Of a DNA stretch of 46,628 nucleotides, positions 1,848 to 46,628 are shown piece after piece. Position 1 is the first letter of the stretch, and each line of letters starts with the position of its first letter. The DNA comes from a virus: IMG/VR virus record IMGVR_UViG_3300050196_000201, positions 1 through 46,628 of that record. One strand, 5' to 3'. Both the position numbers and the translations under genes were made by a program. The notes below the pieces were generated by a model. The model did no database searches. It was not told where the DNA came from and worked only from the letters and a program-made list of their open reading frames with translations.

Positions 1848-2849
1848 ATGGCAAAAAGTAAAAAAGATAAAGACCAGCAAAGGGCGTTTAAAGGCATTTG
1901 GATTCCAGCAGAAGTTTGGGTAAGCGCTGAAATTACAATGCAGGAGAAACTATTCTTAGTTGAAATAGACAGCCTAGATAATGAAGATGGTTGTTATGCT
2001 AGTAATCAATATTTTTCGGACTTCTTTGGAATATCGAAAGTTAGAGTAAGCGAGGTCATTAGTTCACTAATTTTCAAAGGATTCTTAGTATCCAATATTG
2101 ACAAGTCAGAAGGCAACGAGCGGACTATTAGAGTAGTAAAGACTAGAATGCAAGCTCTTAAAGATTCCTTTAAGACCCTCGAAAACAAAAGTTTAAGAGG
2201 GTCACAAACAAACCTTAAAGAGGGTATTAAAGAAACCTTTACCTCAAAGAGTAATCCAAGTAGTAATCCAAGTAGTAATCCAGTCAAAGAGAGTAAAAGT
2301 GTCGTAACCGACACACCCCCACTCTCTCAAACATCGGAATCAAAAACGAACAGTTCAGAAAAAACGGAAAAGCCGATTAATCTCGATTCTGTAAATTCCG
2401 AAAAAAGCACGGATAAAAAACCAAACTCGGGGGGCGGCGGCGAAAAAAATGTTGATAAGTCTGTTAGTTTAGATATTGACAAGGATATTGCGCCGAAAGG
2501 TTTAACGCCCGATAAGGTAGATTTTATCTTTTTAGAAGCTTCTCGAATTACAACGCCTGAAATAATCGCTAAATTTGCCTTATGGCACGAGCGTAGAGCA
2601 ACGAAAACGAAAGGCGTGCGTAGTTGTAAGCATTACCAAAAGATAATGTCTAAAATCGCAAATAGCGACCTCGAATTACATGAGATAATACAAGGCTTAG
2701 ATATGGCTTATGAAAGCACTTGGACAGGGCTTGAAATCGACTGGATTAAAAATAAAACACGTACAAAACAAACACAACAAAATGGAACTTCAAAGCTCGA
2801 ACAACAAAAACAACACATTGCCGATAGCCCATTTTTCAAAGGCTTGTAA
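1848..2849 (+). CDS. Putative replication-initiator/replisome-organiser-like protein (N-terminal wHTH) with a low-complexity linker
   Basis: The N-terminus 'IWIPAEVW..EKLFLVEIDSL..CYASNQYFSDFFGISKVRVSEVISSL' resembles phage initiator/DnaD-type wHTH domains. The middle third is rich in S/N/P/K. This is motif-level only. Confidence 0.45.
   Translation: MAKSKKDKDQQRAFKGIWIPAEVWVSAEITMQEKLFLVEIDSLDNEDGCYASNQYFSDFFGISKVRVSEVISSLIFKGFLVSNIDKSEGNERTIRVVKTRMQALKDSFKTLENKSLRGSQTNLKEGIKETFTSKSNPSSNPSSNPVKESKSVVTDTPPLSQTSESKTNSSEKTEKPINLDSVNSEKSTDKKPNSGGGGEKNVDKSVSLDIDKDIAPKGLTPDKVDFIFLEASRITTPEIIAKFALWHERRATKTKGVRSCKHYQKIMSKIANSDLELHEIIQGLDMAYESTWTGLEIDWIKNKTRTKQTQQNGTSKLEQQKQHIADSPFFKGL
2250..2282 (+). 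repeat. Tandem 12-nt repeat (agtaatccaagt x2.75) encoding SNPSSNPSSNP
   Basis: Read directly from the sequence, inside the linker of ORF 1848..2849. Confidence 0.8.
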
Positions 2850-3936
2850 TGAGATAGCGACAATACAGGATTATAATATCTTACATCTCGAAGGTAAATT
2901 CAAGGCATTAAAAGCCGATATAATCCTATCCGATGCGATTGAGCGGAACAGTACAATGTCCTTAGATGAGTTTATCAATAACACCTGCACGGGCGGCAGT
3001 ACTAAACAGCGTAACGCCTTAGCTCGAAAGTTGAGTATCAAAGACGGTTTAGCCTTAGAAAGTACGGAAGCTTTAATCAATAAGGCAAAAGATAAAGCAG
3101 TTGCTATGCGAATTTATGACAAGTGCGTAGCAGATAATATTATCTTATTAGCTGAATCTTTCGGCTGCGAGTTTAGGGGGGATTTACAAGACGTCGCAGA
3201 CGTGCTGCGAAATAGCTACAAGTATTTTAGCTTACTAGACTGGACTTTGTTTTTCAGCTATGCAAAAGACGGACGGTATAAGACAGAGTTCCAAAACATT
3301 TCAGTCCGTGGCATTAACTTAGAGTTCCTTAACGACTGGATTAAGCAGTATGATAGCGAAAGAGATGAAGCGATAGCGCAAGTCAATAGCGACTTTAAGC
3401 ACTATATTAGCTCTTTACCGACGGATGTAACAAGCGGCTTCTTAGAAAAACAAAAGCTTAATGTAGAAAAGACCGCTAAACTTGATGCGATACGTGACCG
3501 ATGGCATAAAAACAAGCCCTCGCTTAAAGATGAGATTTCTGTTTTCTCTCGAATTGTAAGCCTGAACCGAAAGGATATTTTAGAGTATTTACTCTCTAAA
3601 TACAATCCCGAACTAGGCGAAAAGGAAAAGTTTCTACAAGCGGCGTTTAAGTCATTCCGCTACAATGCGCTTAAATTAAAAGGCTTTGACTTGGTATTTA
3701 ATTTTATGCAATCTTATGAAAAAGACGGTCGCAAAGTTGAGGACGCGCAAGGACAACTAGCAAAGGTTTCTGAAATGTGCGATACTGCTTGGCTCAAATA
3801 TCGTGATGGTGCGATTGAGTTTGCAGAAGTATCAAAAGAGCCGTTCTTTGCATCAAATAAGAAAGAGTTCATTTTAGAGTATGGAATCAAATTTATCATT
3901 CAACAGGGCGGCGAAAACCCTATAAAGCTAATCTAA
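2782..3936 (+). CDS. Hypothetical protein (start uncertain: in-frame ATG at 2710, 2782 and 2956)
   Basis: Long ORF co-directional with its neighbours. It overlaps the upstream ORF end (2849) unless 2956 is the start. No Walker or other motif was recognised. Confidence 0.5.
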   Translation: MELQSSNNKNNTLPIAHFSKACNEIATIQDYNILHLEGKFKALKADIILSDAIERNSTMSLDEFINNTCTGGSTKQRNALARKLSIKDGLALESTEALINKAKDKAVAMRIYDKCVADNIILLAESFGCEFRGDLQDVADVLRNSYKYFSLLDWTLFFSYAKDGRYKTEFQNISVRGINLEFLNDWIKQYDSERDEAIAQVNSDFKHYISSLPTDVTSGFLEKQKLNVEKTAKLDAIRDRWHKNKPSLKDEISVFSRIVSLNRKDILEYLLSKYNPELGEKEKFLQAAFKSFRYNALKLKGFDLVFNFMQSYEKDGRKVEDAQGQLAKVSEMCDTAWLKYRDGAIEFAEVSKEPFFASNKKEFILEYGIKFIIQQGGENPIKLI

Positions 3937-11215: not shown

Positions 11216-12331
11216 ATGACCTACTTAATTAATTTATCCCTGCCGCTTTGGGCTATATTTTTACCGCTTGGAATTGCGGCGGTTTTAGCTGCTAAATACT
11301 ATCAGTCAGAAAGCGCATTTAGTAAAATGAAATCCAACTATCAAGCGCAGCTAAGAGAGGCGCAAAACCGATTAGATGAGGCTACTAAAAATAGTGTTAG
11401 CCTTACTCTTGCACTGCAAGGAACTAATCAGCTTAAAGACGTAAGTGAAAAGCTACACAAAGCAGAATCGGACGCCGTAGAACGTGAGATATTAGTTAGA
11501 GCCTTGCGAGCTGACTTAGCAAATGAATCCGAAATACTGCAAGGTCGTATAAAAGACAAAAACGCCGTAATAAGTGAAAGAGATGCGCAAATCGAGCAAC
11601 TCCAATCCAAACTCCAACTATCCGAACTAGCGCACAATGAAACGAAAGAAGACTTGATTGGCGAAAAGTATTATATTGATGCAATAGCAGAAGTCTATAA
11701 GGTACTATATGGGTTAGTAAAGCGCAATTCTCGAACTAGAAAGCAGTATGATGCAGTAATGCAAAGTATTGGCGAAAAACGTGCATTTGCAATGAATAAT
11801 CTTACTCAAAGTATTTTAGAGTTGGCGAATAAAAAAGCAAGTCAAAAGGCGCAAACTAAGACTATTATTGATGATGGTAAAGTTGATGGCGTGGTATATG
11901 ACAGTCTAGGCACTTTAAGAGTATTCCAAGCAGACCAATCCGAAAGTGTGAATAATAGACATGAGATTGTCAATATCTGCAATGAAGTCAATAGAGGAAT
12001 AGCAGAGCAAGCACAACGCATTAAAGAGGAGTTAGCTAGCGTGGTGGATATGTCGCAATTACAAGTAGGGGATAGTATAGAATTTAGAAATAGTACTGTG
12101 AAAACAGTAGTAAGGCTCGGATATGATAATAGAGGTATTAATTATTTATATTGGATAATGGTAGATAGCAATGAAGGCGACCATTGGCGTATTAAAGATA
12201 TAATTGACTATACAACTAAGGGTTACTATTATCGTAATGAGGATATTTCAAACTTTGACATTATTCAAATAATCAAGCCCGCAAAGTCTAAGGTTAAGTT
12301 TGAGCCGCAAGAGGGAGATGGTACATATTAA
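11216..12331 (+). CDS. Membrane-anchored coiled-coil protein ending in the recurrent ~70-aa domain
   Basis: N-terminal TM 'LSLPLWAIFLPLGIAAVLAA', a long heptad-like region, and the C-terminal domain at 12059-12280. Confidence 0.55.
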   Translation: MTYLINLSLPLWAIFLPLGIAAVLAAKYYQSESAFSKMKSNYQAQLREAQNRLDEATKNSVSLTLALQGTNQLKDVSEKLHKAESDAVEREILVRALRADLANESEILQGRIKDKNAVISERDAQIEQLQSKLQLSELAHNETKEDLIGEKYYIDAIAEVYKVLYGLVKRNSRTRKQYDAVMQSIGEKRAFAMNNLTQSILELANKKASQKAQTKTIIDDGKVDGVVYDSLGTLRVFQADQSESVNNRHEIVNICNEVNRGIAEQAQRIKEELASVVDMSQLQVGDSIEFRNSTVKTVVRLGYDNRGINYLYWIMVDSNEGDHWRIKDIIDYTTKGYYYRNEDISNFDIIQIIKPAKSKVKFEPQEGDGTY

Positions 12332-14866: not shown

Positions 14867-14880
14867 AGTAAACCAAACTA

Positions 14881-14901
14881 AGTAGCTTCGGCTACTTTTT
14901 T
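14881..14901 (+). terminator. Intrinsic terminator
   Basis: AGTAGC-TTCG-GCTACT hairpin followed by TTTTTT. Confidence 0.7.
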
Positions 14902-14952
14902 AAGCAACTGAAAAAAATATTATGTAAAGTCACACGATATTCAAAAAGTGTG

Positions 14953-14994: not shown

Positions 14995-15579
14995 ATGAAA
15001 TTAAGTCAAATAAAACCTAATCCTAAGAACCCTCGTGTAATAAAAGACGATAAGTTTTTAAAGCTAGTTAATAGCCTTAGAGAGTTCCCTGAGATGATGG
15101 CAAAACGCCCTATGGTGTGCGTTACTGACGTAGATAGTAAGTTATACCCACTAGGTGGAAATATGCGCTTAAAGGCACTAATAGAGCTGCAATACAAGGA
15201 TATTCCTGACAGTTGGGTTTCTATTGCAGATGATTGGACAGTTGAGCAAAGGAATGAGTTTACAATTAAGGACAATTTGAGTTTTGGCGAATGGGATTTT
15301 GAACAACTAGCAAACGAATGGGATAGTGAGGAGTTGGGAAATTGGGGGCTTGATATGCCGAGCTTTGCAGCCGATATAGATTATTCAATCCTAAACGATA
15401 GCGATGTAAAAGACCAATTAGAAGATATGGCAAACGGTGTAAAGAAAGCCATTCAGATAGAGTTTGAGGTAGAGGATTATGAGTTAGCTAAGGAACTTGT
15501 AAAATTTTGGCGTGAACAAAAGCTTTACATAGGTGGGTTCATGATTGAAAAACTAAAAGCTGAAAAAGATAAGTTATGA
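14995..15579 (+). CDS. ParB-like nuclease (ParB/Srx fold) domain protein
   Basis: 'IKPNPKNPRVI' and 'LYPLGGNMRLKAL' correspond to ParB N-terminal domain motifs. Confidence 0.65.
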   Translation: MKLSQIKPNPKNPRVIKDDKFLKLVNSLREFPEMMAKRPMVCVTDVDSKLYPLGGNMRLKALIELQYKDIPDSWVSIADDWTVEQRNEFTIKDNLSFGEWDFEQLANEWDSEELGNWGLDMPSFAADIDYSILNDSDVKDQLEDMANGVKKAIQIEFEVEDYELAKELVKFWREQKLYIGGFMIEKLKAEKDKL

Positions 15580-16370
15580 TAAGAGTAGATTTAAATCAGA
15601 TTCAACACGCTTGTAAAGTTGGCGACCAATGCGACTATATTGAACCTAGCGTAAAAGACGATTGTGTTTTTTATGCTGACGGTATTCCAGTTGGTTTCTT
15701 TATGCGTTCAATGCCTGAAAAAGCGTCTAAGCTTGCAGACTTAGCAAATAACGAGTTTAGAAGTAAGGGCGTACCTAAGTCAGACATGAAACGTGCACCG
15801 ACTGATGGAATAGACGAGGCGACAGGTAAGTATAAATATAAGAATGTGGTAATTCAGCAAAGTACTATATTAGGAAGCGTACCACCAAAACCACACATGA
15901 AACGACCTTATCCAACTATAAGCAGCGTTCATGGTGTAAAAGGTGCGCAGACTTTTATTAAGGCGATGCTATTACTTGCAAAAGAAAGTGAAAGTATTAT
16001 ACAAGATATTCTACCTGAGCAATACAAACATCAAGTAGAGTTATTTAAGAAAGTGCCTGATAAATGGAAGTTTGGCAACCTATTTACAAGCTCTATTTCT
16101 AATTACAATATAGCAGCGGCATATCATCGTGACGCTGGCAACATAGAAGGGGCGGTTAATGTAATAATCACTAAACGCTTAAATTCAAAAGGCGGTTGTT
16201 TGAATATTCCCGACTACGGTGCAACTATTGACCAGTGCGATAATTCTATTTTAGTCTATCCTGCATGGAGAAACTTACACGGAGTTACGCCAATCATACC
16301 GACATTTGAAGGGGGTTACAGAAACAGTTTAGTATTCTATCCCTTGAAGGCTTTTGTTGGTTTAGATTGA
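15576..16370 (+). CDS. TET/JBP-family 2OG-Fe(II) dioxygenase (predicted 5-methylcytosine oxidase)
   Basis: 'AAAYHRDAGN' (HxD), 'GGCLNIPDYGATI..NLHGVTPI' (distal His) and 'YRNSLVFYPLK' (2OG Arg) parallel TET 'HRD', 'GGVAIAP..ELHATTP' and 'RxSLVFYQHK' as I recall them. ATGA overlap with the ParB ORF. Confidence 0.8.
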   Translation: MIRVDLNQIQHACKVGDQCDYIEPSVKDDCVFYADGIPVGFFMRSMPEKASKLADLANNEFRSKGVPKSDMKRAPTDGIDEATGKYKYKNVVIQQSTILGSVPPKPHMKRPYPTISSVHGVKGAQTFIKAMLLLAKESESIIQDILPEQYKHQVELFKKVPDKWKFGNLFTSSISNYNIAAAYHRDAGNIEGAVNVIITKRLNSKGGCLNIPDYGATIDQCDNSILVYPAWRNLHGVTPIIPTFEGGYRNSLVFYPLKAFVGLD

Positions 16371-16399
16371 TTCTAAATAACACCGAAATTACACCGAGT

Positions 16400-16819
16400 A
16401 TGAATAAGAAAGATAATTTAAAAGAAGCTTGGCAAAAAGGGCAAAGCGGAAATCCAAAAGGACGTCCCCCGAAGCTTATTACAGGAACTATAAAAGACCT
16501 TAAAGAGCAAGGCTACCAACCCGCAACAGCAGGGCAAATAAGAGAGGCTAGCGAGTATCTTATTACACTAGATAGGGAAAAGCTTACTGAGATAACGAAA
16601 GATGAGATACAGCCAATGTATTTGCGTATTGTGGCGAAGGAGTTACTAGGTAAGAAAGGTTTAGATGTGGTAAATACTATTTTAGACCGTGCGCATGGAA
16701 AACCAAAACAAGGCGTTGAACATAGCGGCGAAGGTGGAGGGGCTATTTTACTTGATTTTACACCAAAAGTAGTTTCTAGTACAAAAGATTTAGCAACAGA
16801 TGAAAAGGACTTAGACTAA
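16400..16819 (+). CDS. terS: Terminase small subunit candidate
   Basis: 'WQKGQSGNPKGRPPK' motif is typical of small terminase-like proteins, and the ORF lies immediately upstream of TerL. The ORF-track start at 16367 is TTG and the first ATG is 16400. Confidence 0.55.
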   Translation: MNKKDNLKEAWQKGQSGNPKGRPPKLITGTIKDLKEQGYQPATAGQIREASEYLITLDREKLTEITKDEIQPMYLRIVAKELLGKKGLDVVNTILDRAHGKPKQGVEHSGEGGGAILLDFTPKVVSSTKDLATDEKDLD

Positions 16820-18000
16820 TGTTTAATAGCTCAATATTGTTTCAAAGGCTTATAGAGTGTGATAAGCGCACAATAGTACTGCAAGGTGGAACTTCAAGCG
16901 GTAAAACTTACAGTACCCTGCAATATCTCTTTTGGCTTGCGGTGCAAAATAAGTTAGTAATAACAGTAGTTGGTCAGGATTTGCCTAACTTAAAAGTAGG
17001 TGCGATTAGGGATGCTGCAAATATAGTGGCGAGTAGTGAGGCGTTAAGAACATTGATAGATAGATATAACCATTCTGAAAACATATACAGGTTTAAAAAT
17101 GGTAGTGTAATGGAGTTTAAGTCGTACAAAGATAAGCAGGACGCACAAAGCGGCAAACGAGATGTTTTATTTGTAAACGAGGCGAACGGTATTGAGTGGG
17201 ACGTTTTCCAACAGTTAGAGATTAGGACTAAGATAAAAGTGATAATTGACTATAATCCTAGCTCACGATTTTGGGCACACGACAGGCTAATAGGGCAACC
17301 CGATACACAATTATACATAAGCAATTACCAACATAACCCATTCTTAGATAAACAGGTAATTATAAACATTGAAAAGAATAAGCCTAAGCCCAATGAAACA
17401 GACGAGATACTTCTAAACTGGTGGAACGTTTATGGACTTGGTAAAACGGGTGTTGTAAGCGGTCAAATTATCAAGCGTGTTTACGATGCTAACGAATTTC
17501 CCGAAGGCTGCATAAAGGTCGCTTACGGCTTAGATTTTGGATTTAGTAATGACCCGACAGCATTAATCAAATGCGGGCTATACGAAGGCGAAATTTACGC
17601 TATGGAGGTAATTTATGAGGCGGGCTTATTAGGTACGGATATAGAGCGGTTAATGATTGAGGCGGGTGTAAATAAGAGAGAGCAGATATTTGCAGATGTA
17701 GGAGGCGGTGGGGATAGATTAATTGCAGAACTAAGCCGCAAAGGTTGGAATGTGAAAGCAGCGGAAAAGGGGGCGGGTTCGATTGAGTACGGTATAGACT
17801 TGGTAAACCGTTACCGCTTGAATGTGGTACGAGGTAGTAGGAATTTAAAGAGAGAGACGGAGCGATATATCTATAAGTCAAACGGTAAGCCGATAGATAA
17901 CCATAATCACGCAATAGATGCGATACGCTACTATGCGTTAATGATGATAGACGAAACAAAACAAAGAAAAGCACAAGTACTAAACACCTATTCAATATAA
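16819..18000 (+). CDS. terL: Terminase large subunit
   Basis: Walker A 'LQGGTSSGKT', 'LFVNEA' Walker B-like motif, C-terminal nuclease-like region. Size and position are typical. Confidence 0.85.
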   Translation: MFNSSILFQRLIECDKRTIVLQGGTSSGKTYSTLQYLFWLAVQNKLVITVVGQDLPNLKVGAIRDAANIVASSEALRTLIDRYNHSENIYRFKNGSVMEFKSYKDKQDAQSGKRDVLFVNEANGIEWDVFQQLEIRTKIKVIIDYNPSSRFWAHDRLIGQPDTQLYISNYQHNPFLDKQVIINIEKNKPKPNETDEILLNWWNVYGLGKTGVVSGQIIKRVYDANEFPEGCIKVAYGLDFGFSNDPTALIKCGLYEGEIYAMEVIYEAGLLGTDIERLMIEAGVNKREQIFADVGGGGDRLIAELSRKGWNVKAAEKGAGSIEYGIDLVNRYRLNVVRGSRNLKRETERYIYKSNGKPIDNHNHAIDAIRYYALMMIDETKQRKAQVLNTYSI

Positions 18001-39641: not shown

Positions 39642-39761
39642 CGCCTATAATTTGATATAAAAAATATATCATTGAAATAATTTTATTTTTGTTGTAACGC
39701 ATTGAAAAACAGTATCGTAATTTTTCGCTGTAAAAATAATTTGAAAAAAGATGCCAAAATG

Positions 39762-39792
39762 TTTGCAGATTAAAACAAAAGGCGTACCTTTG
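39762..39792 (+). promoter_or_regulatory. Bacteroidota-type promoter (TTTG 39762-39765; TAccTTTG 39785-39792)
   Basis: aatgTTTGcagattaaaacaaaaggcgTAccTTTGca with a 19-nt spacer. Confidence 0.65.
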
Positions 39793-39842
39793 CAACGCAA
39801 TCAAGCGCAACACAATTTTTAATCACTTCAAATTTTAATCTC

Positions 39843-40043
39843 ATGCCAAATACAGCCCAAACAATCTTAGAACAATTAAACCCCCTTATCGAAATCGCAT
39901 CTAAAATGATTTTAGCTGGCGTCTTGAAAAAGAACGCAATATTACACTTTACAAATAAGGGCTTCCCATTTGCAGCCGCTGAAAATATTGTAGAGATGGC
40001 AGCAATAAGGGCTGAAAACTTTTTACACAATAAAGCAATATAA
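39843..40043 (+). CDS. Hypothetical 66-aa protein, copy B
   Basis: Differs from copy A (45..245) by D51E, R66I and three synonymous changes. Confidence 0.6.
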   Translation: MPNTAQTILEQLNPLIEIASKMILAGVLKKNAILHFTNKGFPFAAAENIVEMAAIRAENFLHNKAI

Positions 40044-40074
40044 AATTCAATTAACCATTAACCCCAACTAACCC

Positions 40075-40290
40075 ATGACACACAATTTTTCAATCAAATT
40101 CTACTCCGCTAGTGACGAAATCGAAAAGCATTTTGATACACAAGCGCAAAATTTAGATGACGCCTTAATCACGCTTTATGAAGCACACGAGGACGCTATC
40201 TATTTAGAACATGATACAGACATTAACCCTGCAGCCTACGAAAGCGAAAGCGATACAATCAAAGCCGCAATTTTAGAACGCCAAAAATAA
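40075..40290 (+). CDS. Hypothetical acidic protein
   Basis: 71-aa ATG ORF. Confidence 0.45.
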   Translation: MTHNFSIKFYSASDEIEKHFDTQAQNLDDALITLYEAHEDAIYLEHDTDINPAAYESESDTIKAAILERQK

Positions 40291-44559: not shown

Positions 44560-44826
44560 ATGCCTAAACTTGTATATGTCGCAAATATCTCAAACTATCT
44601 AATTAGAGAGTTGAATGTCTTAAAAGAATCCGAAACGCATTACTACACGCACAATAAAGTAACGGATAAATACGAATCATGGTATAAGTCTAGTGTACAT
44701 CTCACGAGAGATGGAGCAGTAAAGCAGATAGAAGTATTTCATAACTTCAAAGTATCAGAGCTTCAAAACAAAATCAAAGCGGCAGAATCTAAGCTGCAAT
44801 CATTCAAACAAAAATATAACCTATAA
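44560..44826 (+). CDS. Hypothetical protein
   Basis: 88-aa ATG ORF. Confidence 0.45.
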   Translation: MPKLVYVANISNYLIRELNVLKESETHYYTHNKVTDKYESWYKSSVHLTRDGAVKQIEVFHNFKVSELQNKIKAAESKLQSFKQKYNL

Positions 44827-45032
44827 TGACCGAACGAAAACAGAAATTGATAGACGCTATTTTAGCGCACAAATCACAGAATAAACTAACACAAGCCTCG
44901 TTAGCTCAAACAATCGGAGTAAGTCGCTCACAAATTGCAAACGTGCTAAAAGGGCGTTTTTGTAGCGTGAACTCACTTTTATCTTACACAAACAAGCTCG
45001 GCATAAAGTTTGAGCTAGTGCAAACTTCGTAA
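44826..45032 (+). CDS. XRE-family helix-turn-helix transcriptional regulator
   Basis: 'LTQASLAQTIGVSRSQIANVLKG' is a classic HTH_3 signature. Confidence 0.6.
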   Translation: MTERKQKLIDAILAHKSQNKLTQASLAQTIGVSRSQIANVLKGRFCSVNSLLSYTNKLGIKFELVQTS

Positions 45033-46425: not shown

Positions 46426-46464
46426 TATTGGTGCAAAAATAATTCAAAGAAATCGTGTGAAATG

Positions 46465-46495
46465 TTTGCAGATTAAAACAAAAGGCGTACCTTTG
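46465..46495 (+). promoter_or_regulatory. Bacteroidota-type promoter (TTTG 46465-46468; TAccTTTG 46488-46495)
   Basis: Identical core to the promoter at 39762-39792. Confidence 0.65.
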
Positions 46496-46545
46496 CATTG
46501 CAATCAAGCGCAACACAATTTTTAATCACTTCAAATTTTAATCTC

Positions 46546-46628
46546 ATGCCAAATACAGCCCAAACAATCTTAGAACAATTAAACCCCCTTATCGAAATCG
46601 CATCTAAAATGATTTTAGCTGGCGTCTT
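46546..46628 (+). CDS. 5' part of the 66-aa ORF (same gene as 45..245, duplicated by the end overlap)
   Basis: Identical sequence to 45-127. Confidence 0.5.
   Translation, partial: MPNTAQTILEQLNPLIEIASKMILAGV

Follow-up and report, generated by a model that had tools for sequence, protein, structure and literature searches.

The virus genome IMGVR_UViG_3300050196_000201 of the IMG/VR database, analysed here over its whole length of 46,628 nucleotides (hereafter the window), contains two open reading frames (ORFs), 14995–15579 and 15576–16370, which encode a ParB-like protein and a TET/JBP-type dioxygenase and stand directly upstream of the terminase genes. We consider it probable (about 0.6) that the two form a ParB-activated, post-replicative system, co-expressed with the terminase, in which the dioxygenase would convert thymine in DNA to 5-hydroxymethyluracil (5hmU) and stop there. 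An exact 127-bp direct repeat, at positions 1–127 and 46502–46628, shows the genome to be closed and complete with 46,501 unique bp, so that a search for absent genes is meaningful. Megablast of 20 kb of the window against GenBank phages gave no match, and thus no annotated near-relative is on record.

The assignment of ORF 15576–16370 to the TET/JBP-type dioxygenases is solid, being based on profile, residues and fold. Residues 122–255 matched the Pfam profile Tet_JBP (PF12851) at E = 3e-11, their 43.2 bits exceeding the gathering cut-off of 34.9, and PHROG 6059 matched with E = 1e-51. Four segments follow each other in the protein, namely AAAYHRDAGN (180–189), GGCLNIPDYGATI (206–218), WRNLHGVTPI (231–240) and YRNSLVFYPLK (248–258), in which H184, D186 and H235 are the iron ligands, R249 is the 2-oxoglutarate (2OG) ligand, and N189, Y255 and L257 belong to the base pocket. 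No variation occurs at H184, D186, N189, H235, R249 and Y255 among 48 homologues (mean column identity 74%), nor in an alignment reaching the actinophage TETs (27% identity; eight distant homologues); to judge from these alignments, the iron and 2OG ligands are under strong purifying selection. A phmmer search against PDB sequences gave a marginal match (human TET2, E = 0.35), so that a fold search was required. In the TET2 alignment H184-R-D186 falls on the HRD motif, H235 on the distal histidine and R249-x-S-L-V-F-Y on RISLVFY. The AlphaFold2 (AF2) model (pLDDT 87.2, pTM 0.86) was searched with Foldseek against the PDB and also against BFVD; its best PDB matches were CcTet, human TET2, CMD1 and NgTET1 (E = 8e-9 to 1e-5), which occupied ranks 1–24, with FTO, AlkB and PHD2 below them. 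A preliminary description of this DNA had read TET/JBP signature segments in this ORF and had suggested a Tet_JBP profile search and a comparison of a predicted structure with known TET enzymes as checks; every segment it quoted was located, in the correct order, and both the profile score and the structural matches, TET2 and NgTET1 among them, agree with its assignment.

The product of ORF 14995–15579 consists of a ParB/Srx nucleotide-binding domain (residues ~1–100), two short helices, an acidic linker modelled with low confidence and a predicted C-terminal helical domain of ~45 aa. PHROG 17622, 498 and 620, all of them ParB-containing families, matched it with E-values of 1e-17 to 1e-21. 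On the protein itself Pfam ParB_N was sub-threshold (12.9 versus 26.3 bits), and homologues ~70% identical to it carry PF02195. With its AF2 model (pLDDT >80 at residues 1–120 and ~50 at 125–194), Foldseek placed MxParB (E = 3e-5), Noc, CcParB, KorB and sulfiredoxin on top, which together with the PHROG matches bears out the ParB/Srx fold named in the preliminary description. The residues N12-P13-R14, S27 and G54-G55-N56-M57-R58 are invariant, and profile alignment with Helicobacter pylori ParB puts NPKNPR on NPYQPR (box I) and GGNMR on GERR (box II). CTP hydrolysis by MxParB uses Q52 of box I and E93 of GERR; the corresponding positions are occupied here by N12 and N56, both invariant in 44 homologues, and the phosphate-binding arginines R14 and R58 are retained. 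Asparagine at both hydrolysis positions, with the arginines kept, suggests a protein that may bind nucleotide without canonical hydrolysis. No helix-turn-helix (HTH) DNA-binding domain was found in the protein, for which Pfam gives ParB_N alone. The N-terminal fold and boxes I (NPxNPR) and II (GGNMR versus GERR) are like those of the chromosomal ParB/Noc/KorB CTPase clamps; unlike these, the window protein lacks an HTH/parS-binding domain, has asparagine in place of Q52 and E93, and has no ParA partner. Its last 45 aa are strongly conserved, yet are modelled with a pLDDT of ~50, and in this low-confidence monomer model the C-terminal segment resembles a strand-helix-helix dimerisation module. 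The stretch 15129–15579 of the window (ParB-like residues 148–194) shows a conserved GVKKAIQIEFE followed by two helices split by a glycine.

The pairing of the two genes was followed in 80 related loci of IMG/VR, in which the TET is 60–84% identical to that of the window and of which up to 8 kb of flanking DNA was examined on each side; counts below are out of 81 related loci. A ParB homologue lies upstream of the TET in every locus with enough upstream DNA; it was found by ORF calling in 68 of the 81 loci and by tblastn in three more, and the rest are truncated by contig ends. A ParB-less state, at first seen in three loci, was discarded once tblastn had located the ParB genes. The ParB linkage is obligate. 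Across the phages the ParB is 44–85% and the TET 60–84% identical, whereas TerL is merely 23–45% identical, so that the pair represents a conserved cassette that moves between very different phages. The 4-nt ATGA by which the ParB-like stop overlaps the dioxygenase start recurs identically in five related loci (L004, L006, L061, L062 and L073).

Between ParB and TET, the related loci (L001 and L005–L083) have a variable slot. Its commonest occupant is an FkbM-type methyltransferase (PF05050; ~27 loci, that of Prochlorococcus phage MED4-184 among them), followed by a TAGT glycosyltransferase (PF20691; 24 loci), proteins of two unassigned classes (276 and 301 aa; seven loci), an NTP-transferase/HAD/kinase set (three loci) and AADT (PF18724) with a P-loop kinase (three loci); in seven or eight loci the slot is empty and ParB abuts the TET, as in the window. 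An ORF-free gap of 600 bp between ParB and TET in 22 loci was rejected as a separate state, since tblastn revealed FkbM methyltransferase genes there. AADT and a P-loop kinase adjoin the pair in L036, L063, L072 and L083, whose TETs are 60–70% identical to that of the window. In L083 (946–3650) ParB abuts the TET, and a PLP enzyme, AADT and a P-loop kinase come immediately downstream of the TET, so that decorating genes are not confined to the slot. The slot states are intermixed on a neighbour-joining tree of the TETs, on which the empty state has at least four origins.

Among cultured phages, the Prochlorococcus siphophages MED4-184, MED4-117 and P-HS2 come closest (TET 49% and ParB 36% identical). 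They share with the window the order ParB, slot, TET, small ORF and TerL, but carry the FkbM-type methyltransferase (PF05050) in the slot that is empty in the window. In actinophages ParB is gene 1 and TET gene 2; a glycosyltransferase, or aGPT-Pplase with a 5hmU kinase, comes next, ahead of TerL. Altogether 3,889 homologues of the dioxygenase were found at E ≤ 1e-5, and TET homologues occurred in 102 GenBank phage records (actinobacterial, cyanobacterial and Caulobacter phages). A first scan of GTDB genomes for the TET family found nothing; a second (L084–L092) found it only on short contigs of metagenome-assembled genomes of mixed taxonomy (Methylomonas, Cytophagales, Saprospiraceae, Sediminibacterium and Oscillatoria), with ParB upstream wherever the contig reaches far enough, and in no isolate genome. 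These contigs are probably binned phage fragments, and in view of their mixed taxonomy we make no host call for the phage. Database names given to this family are incorrect: TET/JBP proteins go under 'queuine tRNA-ribosyltransferase', 'DpdA-like tRNA-guanine transglycosylase' or 'oxidoreductase' (L001, NC_020847.1, 15790–17914; L002, PP035218.1, 813–1691; PHROG 6059), and GenBank lists the MED4-184 gene for the ParB-like protein as 'DNA methylase'.

No enzyme that would further decorate the oxidised base was recognised in the window. A phmmer search of its six-frame translation with 132 neighbour proteins from the related loci recovered TerL alone; hidden Markov models (HMMs) of all 13 slot families gave a best E-value of 0.1 on the same translation; Pfam, PHROG, NCBIfam and PADLOC showed no transferase, kinase or S-adenosylmethionine-dependent methyltransferase among the larger ORFs; and a Pfam census of the 79 other ORFs, which matched only YopX, Peptidase_S49, DUF3127, NfeD1b_N and one HTH protein, included no glycosyltransferase, kinase, methyltransferase or other transferase. 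Genes for thymidine hypermodification (P-loop kinase, AADT, GATase) were likewise found by none of phmmer, the slot HMMs and the Pfam census. The preliminary description had seen no decorating enzyme either, and these searches agree with it; the coupling of ParB and TET that it described holds, but its reading of the system as hypermodification is not supported. Synthesis of 5-hydroxymethyldeoxyuridine (5hmdU) before replication was set aside, as the Pfam census contained no dUMP hydroxymethylase and no thymidylate-synthase-like gene. An HTH_ParB match, considered as the second part of a ParB, was also dismissed; by eye, its likeliest source is a generic HTH ORF of 68 aa (44826–45032).

The pairing of a ParB with a dioxygenase was described in 2026 by O'Toole et al. 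(PNAS; PMC13229309), who distinguished two subclasses of phage thymine dioxygenases among the 5-methylpyrimidine dioxygenases (5mYOX), one of them encoded beside a ParB homologue that has a nucleotide-binding domain and a C-terminal domain and no DNA-binding domain. In that work, ParB-associated 5mYOX produced 5hmU in Escherichia coli only when the cognate ParB was co-expressed, and ParB was required on canonical double-stranded DNA in vitro; the lack of an adjacent cytosine C5-methyltransferase (C5-MT) served as a predictor of thymine dioxygenases; and the commonest 5mYOX neighbours were glycosyltransferases, ParBs and terminases, with a C5-MT in only 6% of pathways (PMC13229309). The window pair is like the characterised pair 5mYOX176/ParB176 in that the TET lies directly downstream of a short, HTH-less ParB with no C5-MT adjacent, that terminase genes are frequently associated, and that relatives are linked to AADT and a P-loop kinase. 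The two ParBs also agree in the replacement of the box I glutamine by asparagine and in keeping the Arg, Ser and Arg, N12, R14, S27 and R58 corresponding to the mutated positions N14, R16, S29 and R56 of ParB176. The domain plan of the window ParB, in which a nucleotide-binding domain, ~20 structured residues, a disordered linker and a putative C-terminal domain follow each other and no HTH was found, likewise fits ParB176. The window ParB is shorter (194 aa), however, and the window genome has no thymidine-hypermodification genes.

Several considerations suggest that thymine is the main substrate. By its ParB linkage the enzyme resembles the class that was shown experimentally to make 5hmU; no C5-MT is adjacent, and C5-MTs are rare near the related pairs; close relatives lie beside AADT and a P-loop kinase, whose annotation is that of thymidine-hypermodification enzymes with 5hmU as substrate; and L257 replaces H1904 of TET2, which hydrogen-bonds N3 of 5-methylcytosine (5mC), the leucine being invariant in the alignment with the actinophage enzymes as well. 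The cytosine substrate assumed in the preliminary description is not supported: L257 stands in place of H1904, and ParB-coupled 5mYOX that have no adjacent C5-MT oxidise thymine (PMC13229309). The enzyme may nevertheless act on 5mC as well.

According to the mechanism that we propose, the dioxygenase and its cognate ParB-like activator would act as a two-component DNA base-oxidation module whose genes open the late packaging operon and are transcribed together with terS and terL. Once the phage DNA has been replicated, the dioxygenase would flip thymines out of the double strand and hydroxylate their C5-methyl group, giving 5hmU and possibly, by further oxidation, 5-formyluracil (5fU) or 5-carboxyuracil (5caU), probably in a subset of sequence contexts only. 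The ParB-like protein would be needed for productive action of the dioxygenase on duplex DNA, and because the slot is empty, with no transferase, kinase or methyltransferase, the modification would most likely end at the oxidised base. In the base J pathway of trypanosomatids, JBP1 and JBP2 convert thymine to 5hmU in DNA by means of a TET/JBP domain; these are large eukaryotic proteins with DNA-binding or SNF2 domains of their own, and they need no ParB. The next step of that pathway is mirrored by TAGT (PF20691) in the 24 related phage loci, whereas the window has no glycosyltransferase.

Several points weigh against thymine as substrate, ParB dependence or 5hmU as end product. N189 corresponds to N1387 of TET2, which contacts N4 of 5mC; the determinants of the choice between T and 5mC are unsettled in the literature; in vitro, 5mYOX176 acts on T and 5mC to a similar degree (PMC13229309); and the genome encodes a Dcm-like protein (ORF 280–951). 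The dioxygenase is merely ~27% identical to the actinophage type of ParB-linked TETs. A C-terminal extension is reported to be exclusive to the ParB-dependent enzymes and required for the activity of 5mYOX176 (PMC13229309), and the window enzyme, which ends 15 residues past R249, is without this ~45-aa extension of the actinophage ParB-linked TETs; in the alignment with them it has an extra segment at about residues 45–72. Finally, ~70 ORFs of the genome are without assignment and may leave room for a new decorating enzyme.

The pocket asparagine, the acceptance of 5mC by the ParB-dependent 5mYOX176 and the Dcm-like gene also favour an alternative, which we regard as unlikely, that the product of ORF 280–951 methylates cytosine and the dioxygenase oxidises the resulting 5mC to 5-hydroxymethylcytosine (5hmC), 5-formylcytosine or 5-carboxylcytosine, so that the phage carries oxidised cytosine. 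Phage TETs of clades A and B, which adjoin active C5-MTs, do act on 5mC (Burke et al., PNAS 2021; PMC8256090). ORF 280–951 has the PPC and ENP motifs and matches PHROG 757, some of its homologues are named cytosine methylase, hhalign aligned it with M.HhaI weakly (E = 0.12) with motifs III–IV in register, and PADLOC MTase_II matched it at E = 0.005. Its FxGxG motif is absent, however, and neither Pfam (PF00145 included), NCBIfam nor PDB sequences gave a match to it; a profile of its family gave none against PDB sequences. Truncated C5-MTs associated with clade C and D TETs were inactive or weak in an earlier study (PMC8256090). In 77 of the 81 loci no such gene occurs within 8 kb of the pair, and in the other four it lies just downstream of TerL; canonical PF00145 makes up one cluster among 126 neighbour families; and at the base pocket His1904 of TET2 is replaced by leucine.

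The genomic setting of ORF 280–951 also argues against its taking part in the system. It is located 14 kb from the pair, behind a different promoter-like module that occurs twice, as a near-identical direct repeat of ~300 bp, 6.7 kb apart (39757–40057, and 46460–46628 continuing into 1–260). In each copy a TACCTTTG box accompanies an ORF of 66 aa (45–245 and its twin); one copy heads the Dcm-like gene, the other the operon starting at 40075, and from its sequence the repeat looks like a duplicated promoter-plus-leader-gene module. By tblastn the family of ORF 280–951 occurs in 897 GenBank phage records, mostly from Escherichia, Klebsiella and Salmonella hosts and including P-SSP7, kagunaviruses and rV5-like phages; these dominant hosts are not among the 102 TET-bearing records, and the host ranges barely overlap. 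In view of the distance, the separate promoter-like module and the different host range, we treat ORF 280–951 as an independent gene of doubtful activity, which might supply 5mC but is unlinked to the pair and probably no part of the ParB/TET system. The C5-MTase-like character that the preliminary description gave to this ORF has some support in the PPC and ENP motifs, but the role of 5mC supplier is doubtful for a truncated protein without FxGxG that is encoded so far away. The clade A and B dioxygenases share with the window enzyme the superfamily, the catalytic core and the proposed post-replicative action, and in some contigs ParB and terminase genes as well; they have an adjacent, active, full-length C5-MT and act on Gp5mC (PMC8256090), whereas the sole MTase-like gene of the window is truncated and remote and the N3-reading histidine is a leucine. 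Beside the Dcm-like gene, the product of ORF 1209–1844 (211 aa) has a weak match to excinuclease Cho/GIY-YIG (NCBIfam E = 6e-8), far under the cut-off.

It is also improbable, in our estimation, that the oxidised base is an intermediate, and that one of the ~70 unassigned ORFs is a new decorating enzyme which leaves the virion DNA hypermodified. Some 88% of the related loci pair ParB/TET with a decorating gene (the unassigned 276-aa and 301-aa classes included), those of L083 lie downstream of the TET outside the slot, and large ORFs of the window such as 2710–3936 and 11216–12331 match nothing. The searches with slot HMMs, neighbour proteins and Pfam were, however, all negative apart from TerL, seven or eight other loci in which ParB abuts the TET have no known decorating family within flanks of up to 8 kb on each side, and the at least four origins of the empty state on the TET tree suggest that a bare pair is viable. 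A more novel reading, which we think rather unlikely, is that either the bare pair would be self-sufficient, with ParB activation of an extension-free enzyme and naked 5hmU, 5fU or 5caU as the final mark, or else an unassigned ORF would belong to a new decorating class.

That the pair marks only a few sites near the packaging site, or that ParB brings the enzyme to terminase-bound DNA, for packaging control or self-marking and not for anti-restriction, seems very unlikely. The module does always immediately precede terS/terL, in phages that are unrelated in other respects, a proposal by Aravind and co-workers of ParB-directed, site-specific modification during packaging is quoted in PMC8256090, and the characterised enzymes modify at most ~35% of T, with sequence preference (PMC13229309). 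However, the 5mYOX-associated ParBs have no HTH to read parS, either here or in the published set, and ParB176 with 5mYOX176 modifies ~35% of the thymines across the E. coli genome, without confinement to particular sites (PMC13229309); gene order alone does not establish a mechanistic link. Finally, a substrate other than DNA 5-methylpyrimidines (N6-methyladenine, 6mA, as reported for CcTet, or RNA) or a catalytically dead enzyme is scarcely to be expected, for although the top structural match, CcTet, was crystallised with 6mA DNA and several of the tested ParB/5mYOX pairs gave no or <1% 5hmU (PMC13229309), the metal and cosubstrate ligands are invariant in a well conserved family, the stacking tyrosine and the pocket asparagine are conserved, and the relatives' neighbours are 5hmU/5hmC-directed enzymes.

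The features of the packaging operon, together with the Dcm-like gene, are listed in Table 1. The overlap of the two reading frames and the place of the pair at the head of the operon are as the preliminary description had given them. The start of ORF 16367–16819 overlaps the dioxygenase stop, and we regard this ORF as a putative TerS on account of its position directly upstream of TerL, DUF5681 being its only domain; of the two terminase genes claimed earlier, TerL is therefore confirmed by domain matches and TerS is a label from position. The hairpin upstream of the pair, whose stem the terminator scan reported on the minus strand and whose plus-strand T run was read from the sequence, presumably closes the preceding gene block as a terminator. 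The -7 box reported for the operon is present as TATCTTTG and is a plausible operon promoter by its sequence and place, but the motif TAnnTTTG is only weakly non-random: it is modestly enriched in the genome (85 observed versus 65 ± 7.5 expected) and intergenic in 16 of the 85 cases against 10% expected (p = 0.01). Boxes of the TATCTTTG or TACCTTTG form are intergenic at 992, 13400, 14953, 37573, 39634 (minus strand) and 46488, mostly 35–210 nt ahead of a gene read from the same strand; they would be compatible with promoters of the Bacteroidota type. Elsewhere in the genome, ORF 8865–9617 matches PHROG 1992 (E = 3e-36) and encodes a MazG-like nucleotide pyrophosphohydrolase that is extended by ~90 aa at its C-terminus.

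Table 1. Features of the window around the ParB/dioxygenase pair, with the distant Dcm-like gene
Feature	Position	Strand	Basis
Truncated Dcm-like (C5-MTase-like) protein, 223 aa	280..951	+	PHROG 757 (E 5e-63); PPC and ENP motifs
Terminator-like hairpin AAGTAGC-TTCG-GCTACTT, then T run	14880..14903	+	Terminator scan; sequence
TATCTTTG, match to the TAnnTTTG '-7 box', 35 nt before the ParB-like start codon	14953..14960	+	Sequence
ParB-like putative activator, 194 aa	14995..15579	+	PHROG; PF02195 in homologues; AF2; Foldseek
ATGA overlap of ParB-like stop and dioxygenase start (translational coupling)	15576..15579	+	Sequence
TET/JBP-family Fe(II)/2OG 5-methylpyrimidine dioxygenase (5mYOX), 264 aa	15576..16370	+	Pfam; PHROG; alignments; AF2; Foldseek
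Putative small terminase subunit (DUF5681)	16367..16819	+	Pfam DUF5681 (E 4.7e-8); position
Large terminase subunit TerL	16819..18000	+	Pfam Terminase_3 and Terminase_6N; PHROG 2 (E 6e-32)

Since the ParB/dioxygenase pairing as such was already described in 2026 (PMC13229309), what is new here, in minor points, is that the cassette is minimal, that the dioxygenase has no C-terminal extension and that there is an abundant aquatic branch. On this evidence the uncultured phage probably belongs to the class of post-replicative thymine dioxygenases activated by ParB, which was defined only recently. That class thereby gains a very abundant aquatic branch of 3,889 homologues, to which Prochlorococcus siphophages are the nearest phages in culture and which is characterised by obligate ParB linkage, a hot-swappable slot and a minority of genomes without a secondary enzyme. 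They also correct the widespread names 'queuine tRNA-ribosyltransferase', 'DpdA-like' and 'DNA methylase'. If the bare pair is self-sufficient, an extension-free, ParB-linked 5mYOX would be activated by ParB in a different way. Minimal genomes such as this one would be the cleanest natural systems in which to study the role of 5hmU alone in a phage, as well as ParB activation without the C-terminal extension.

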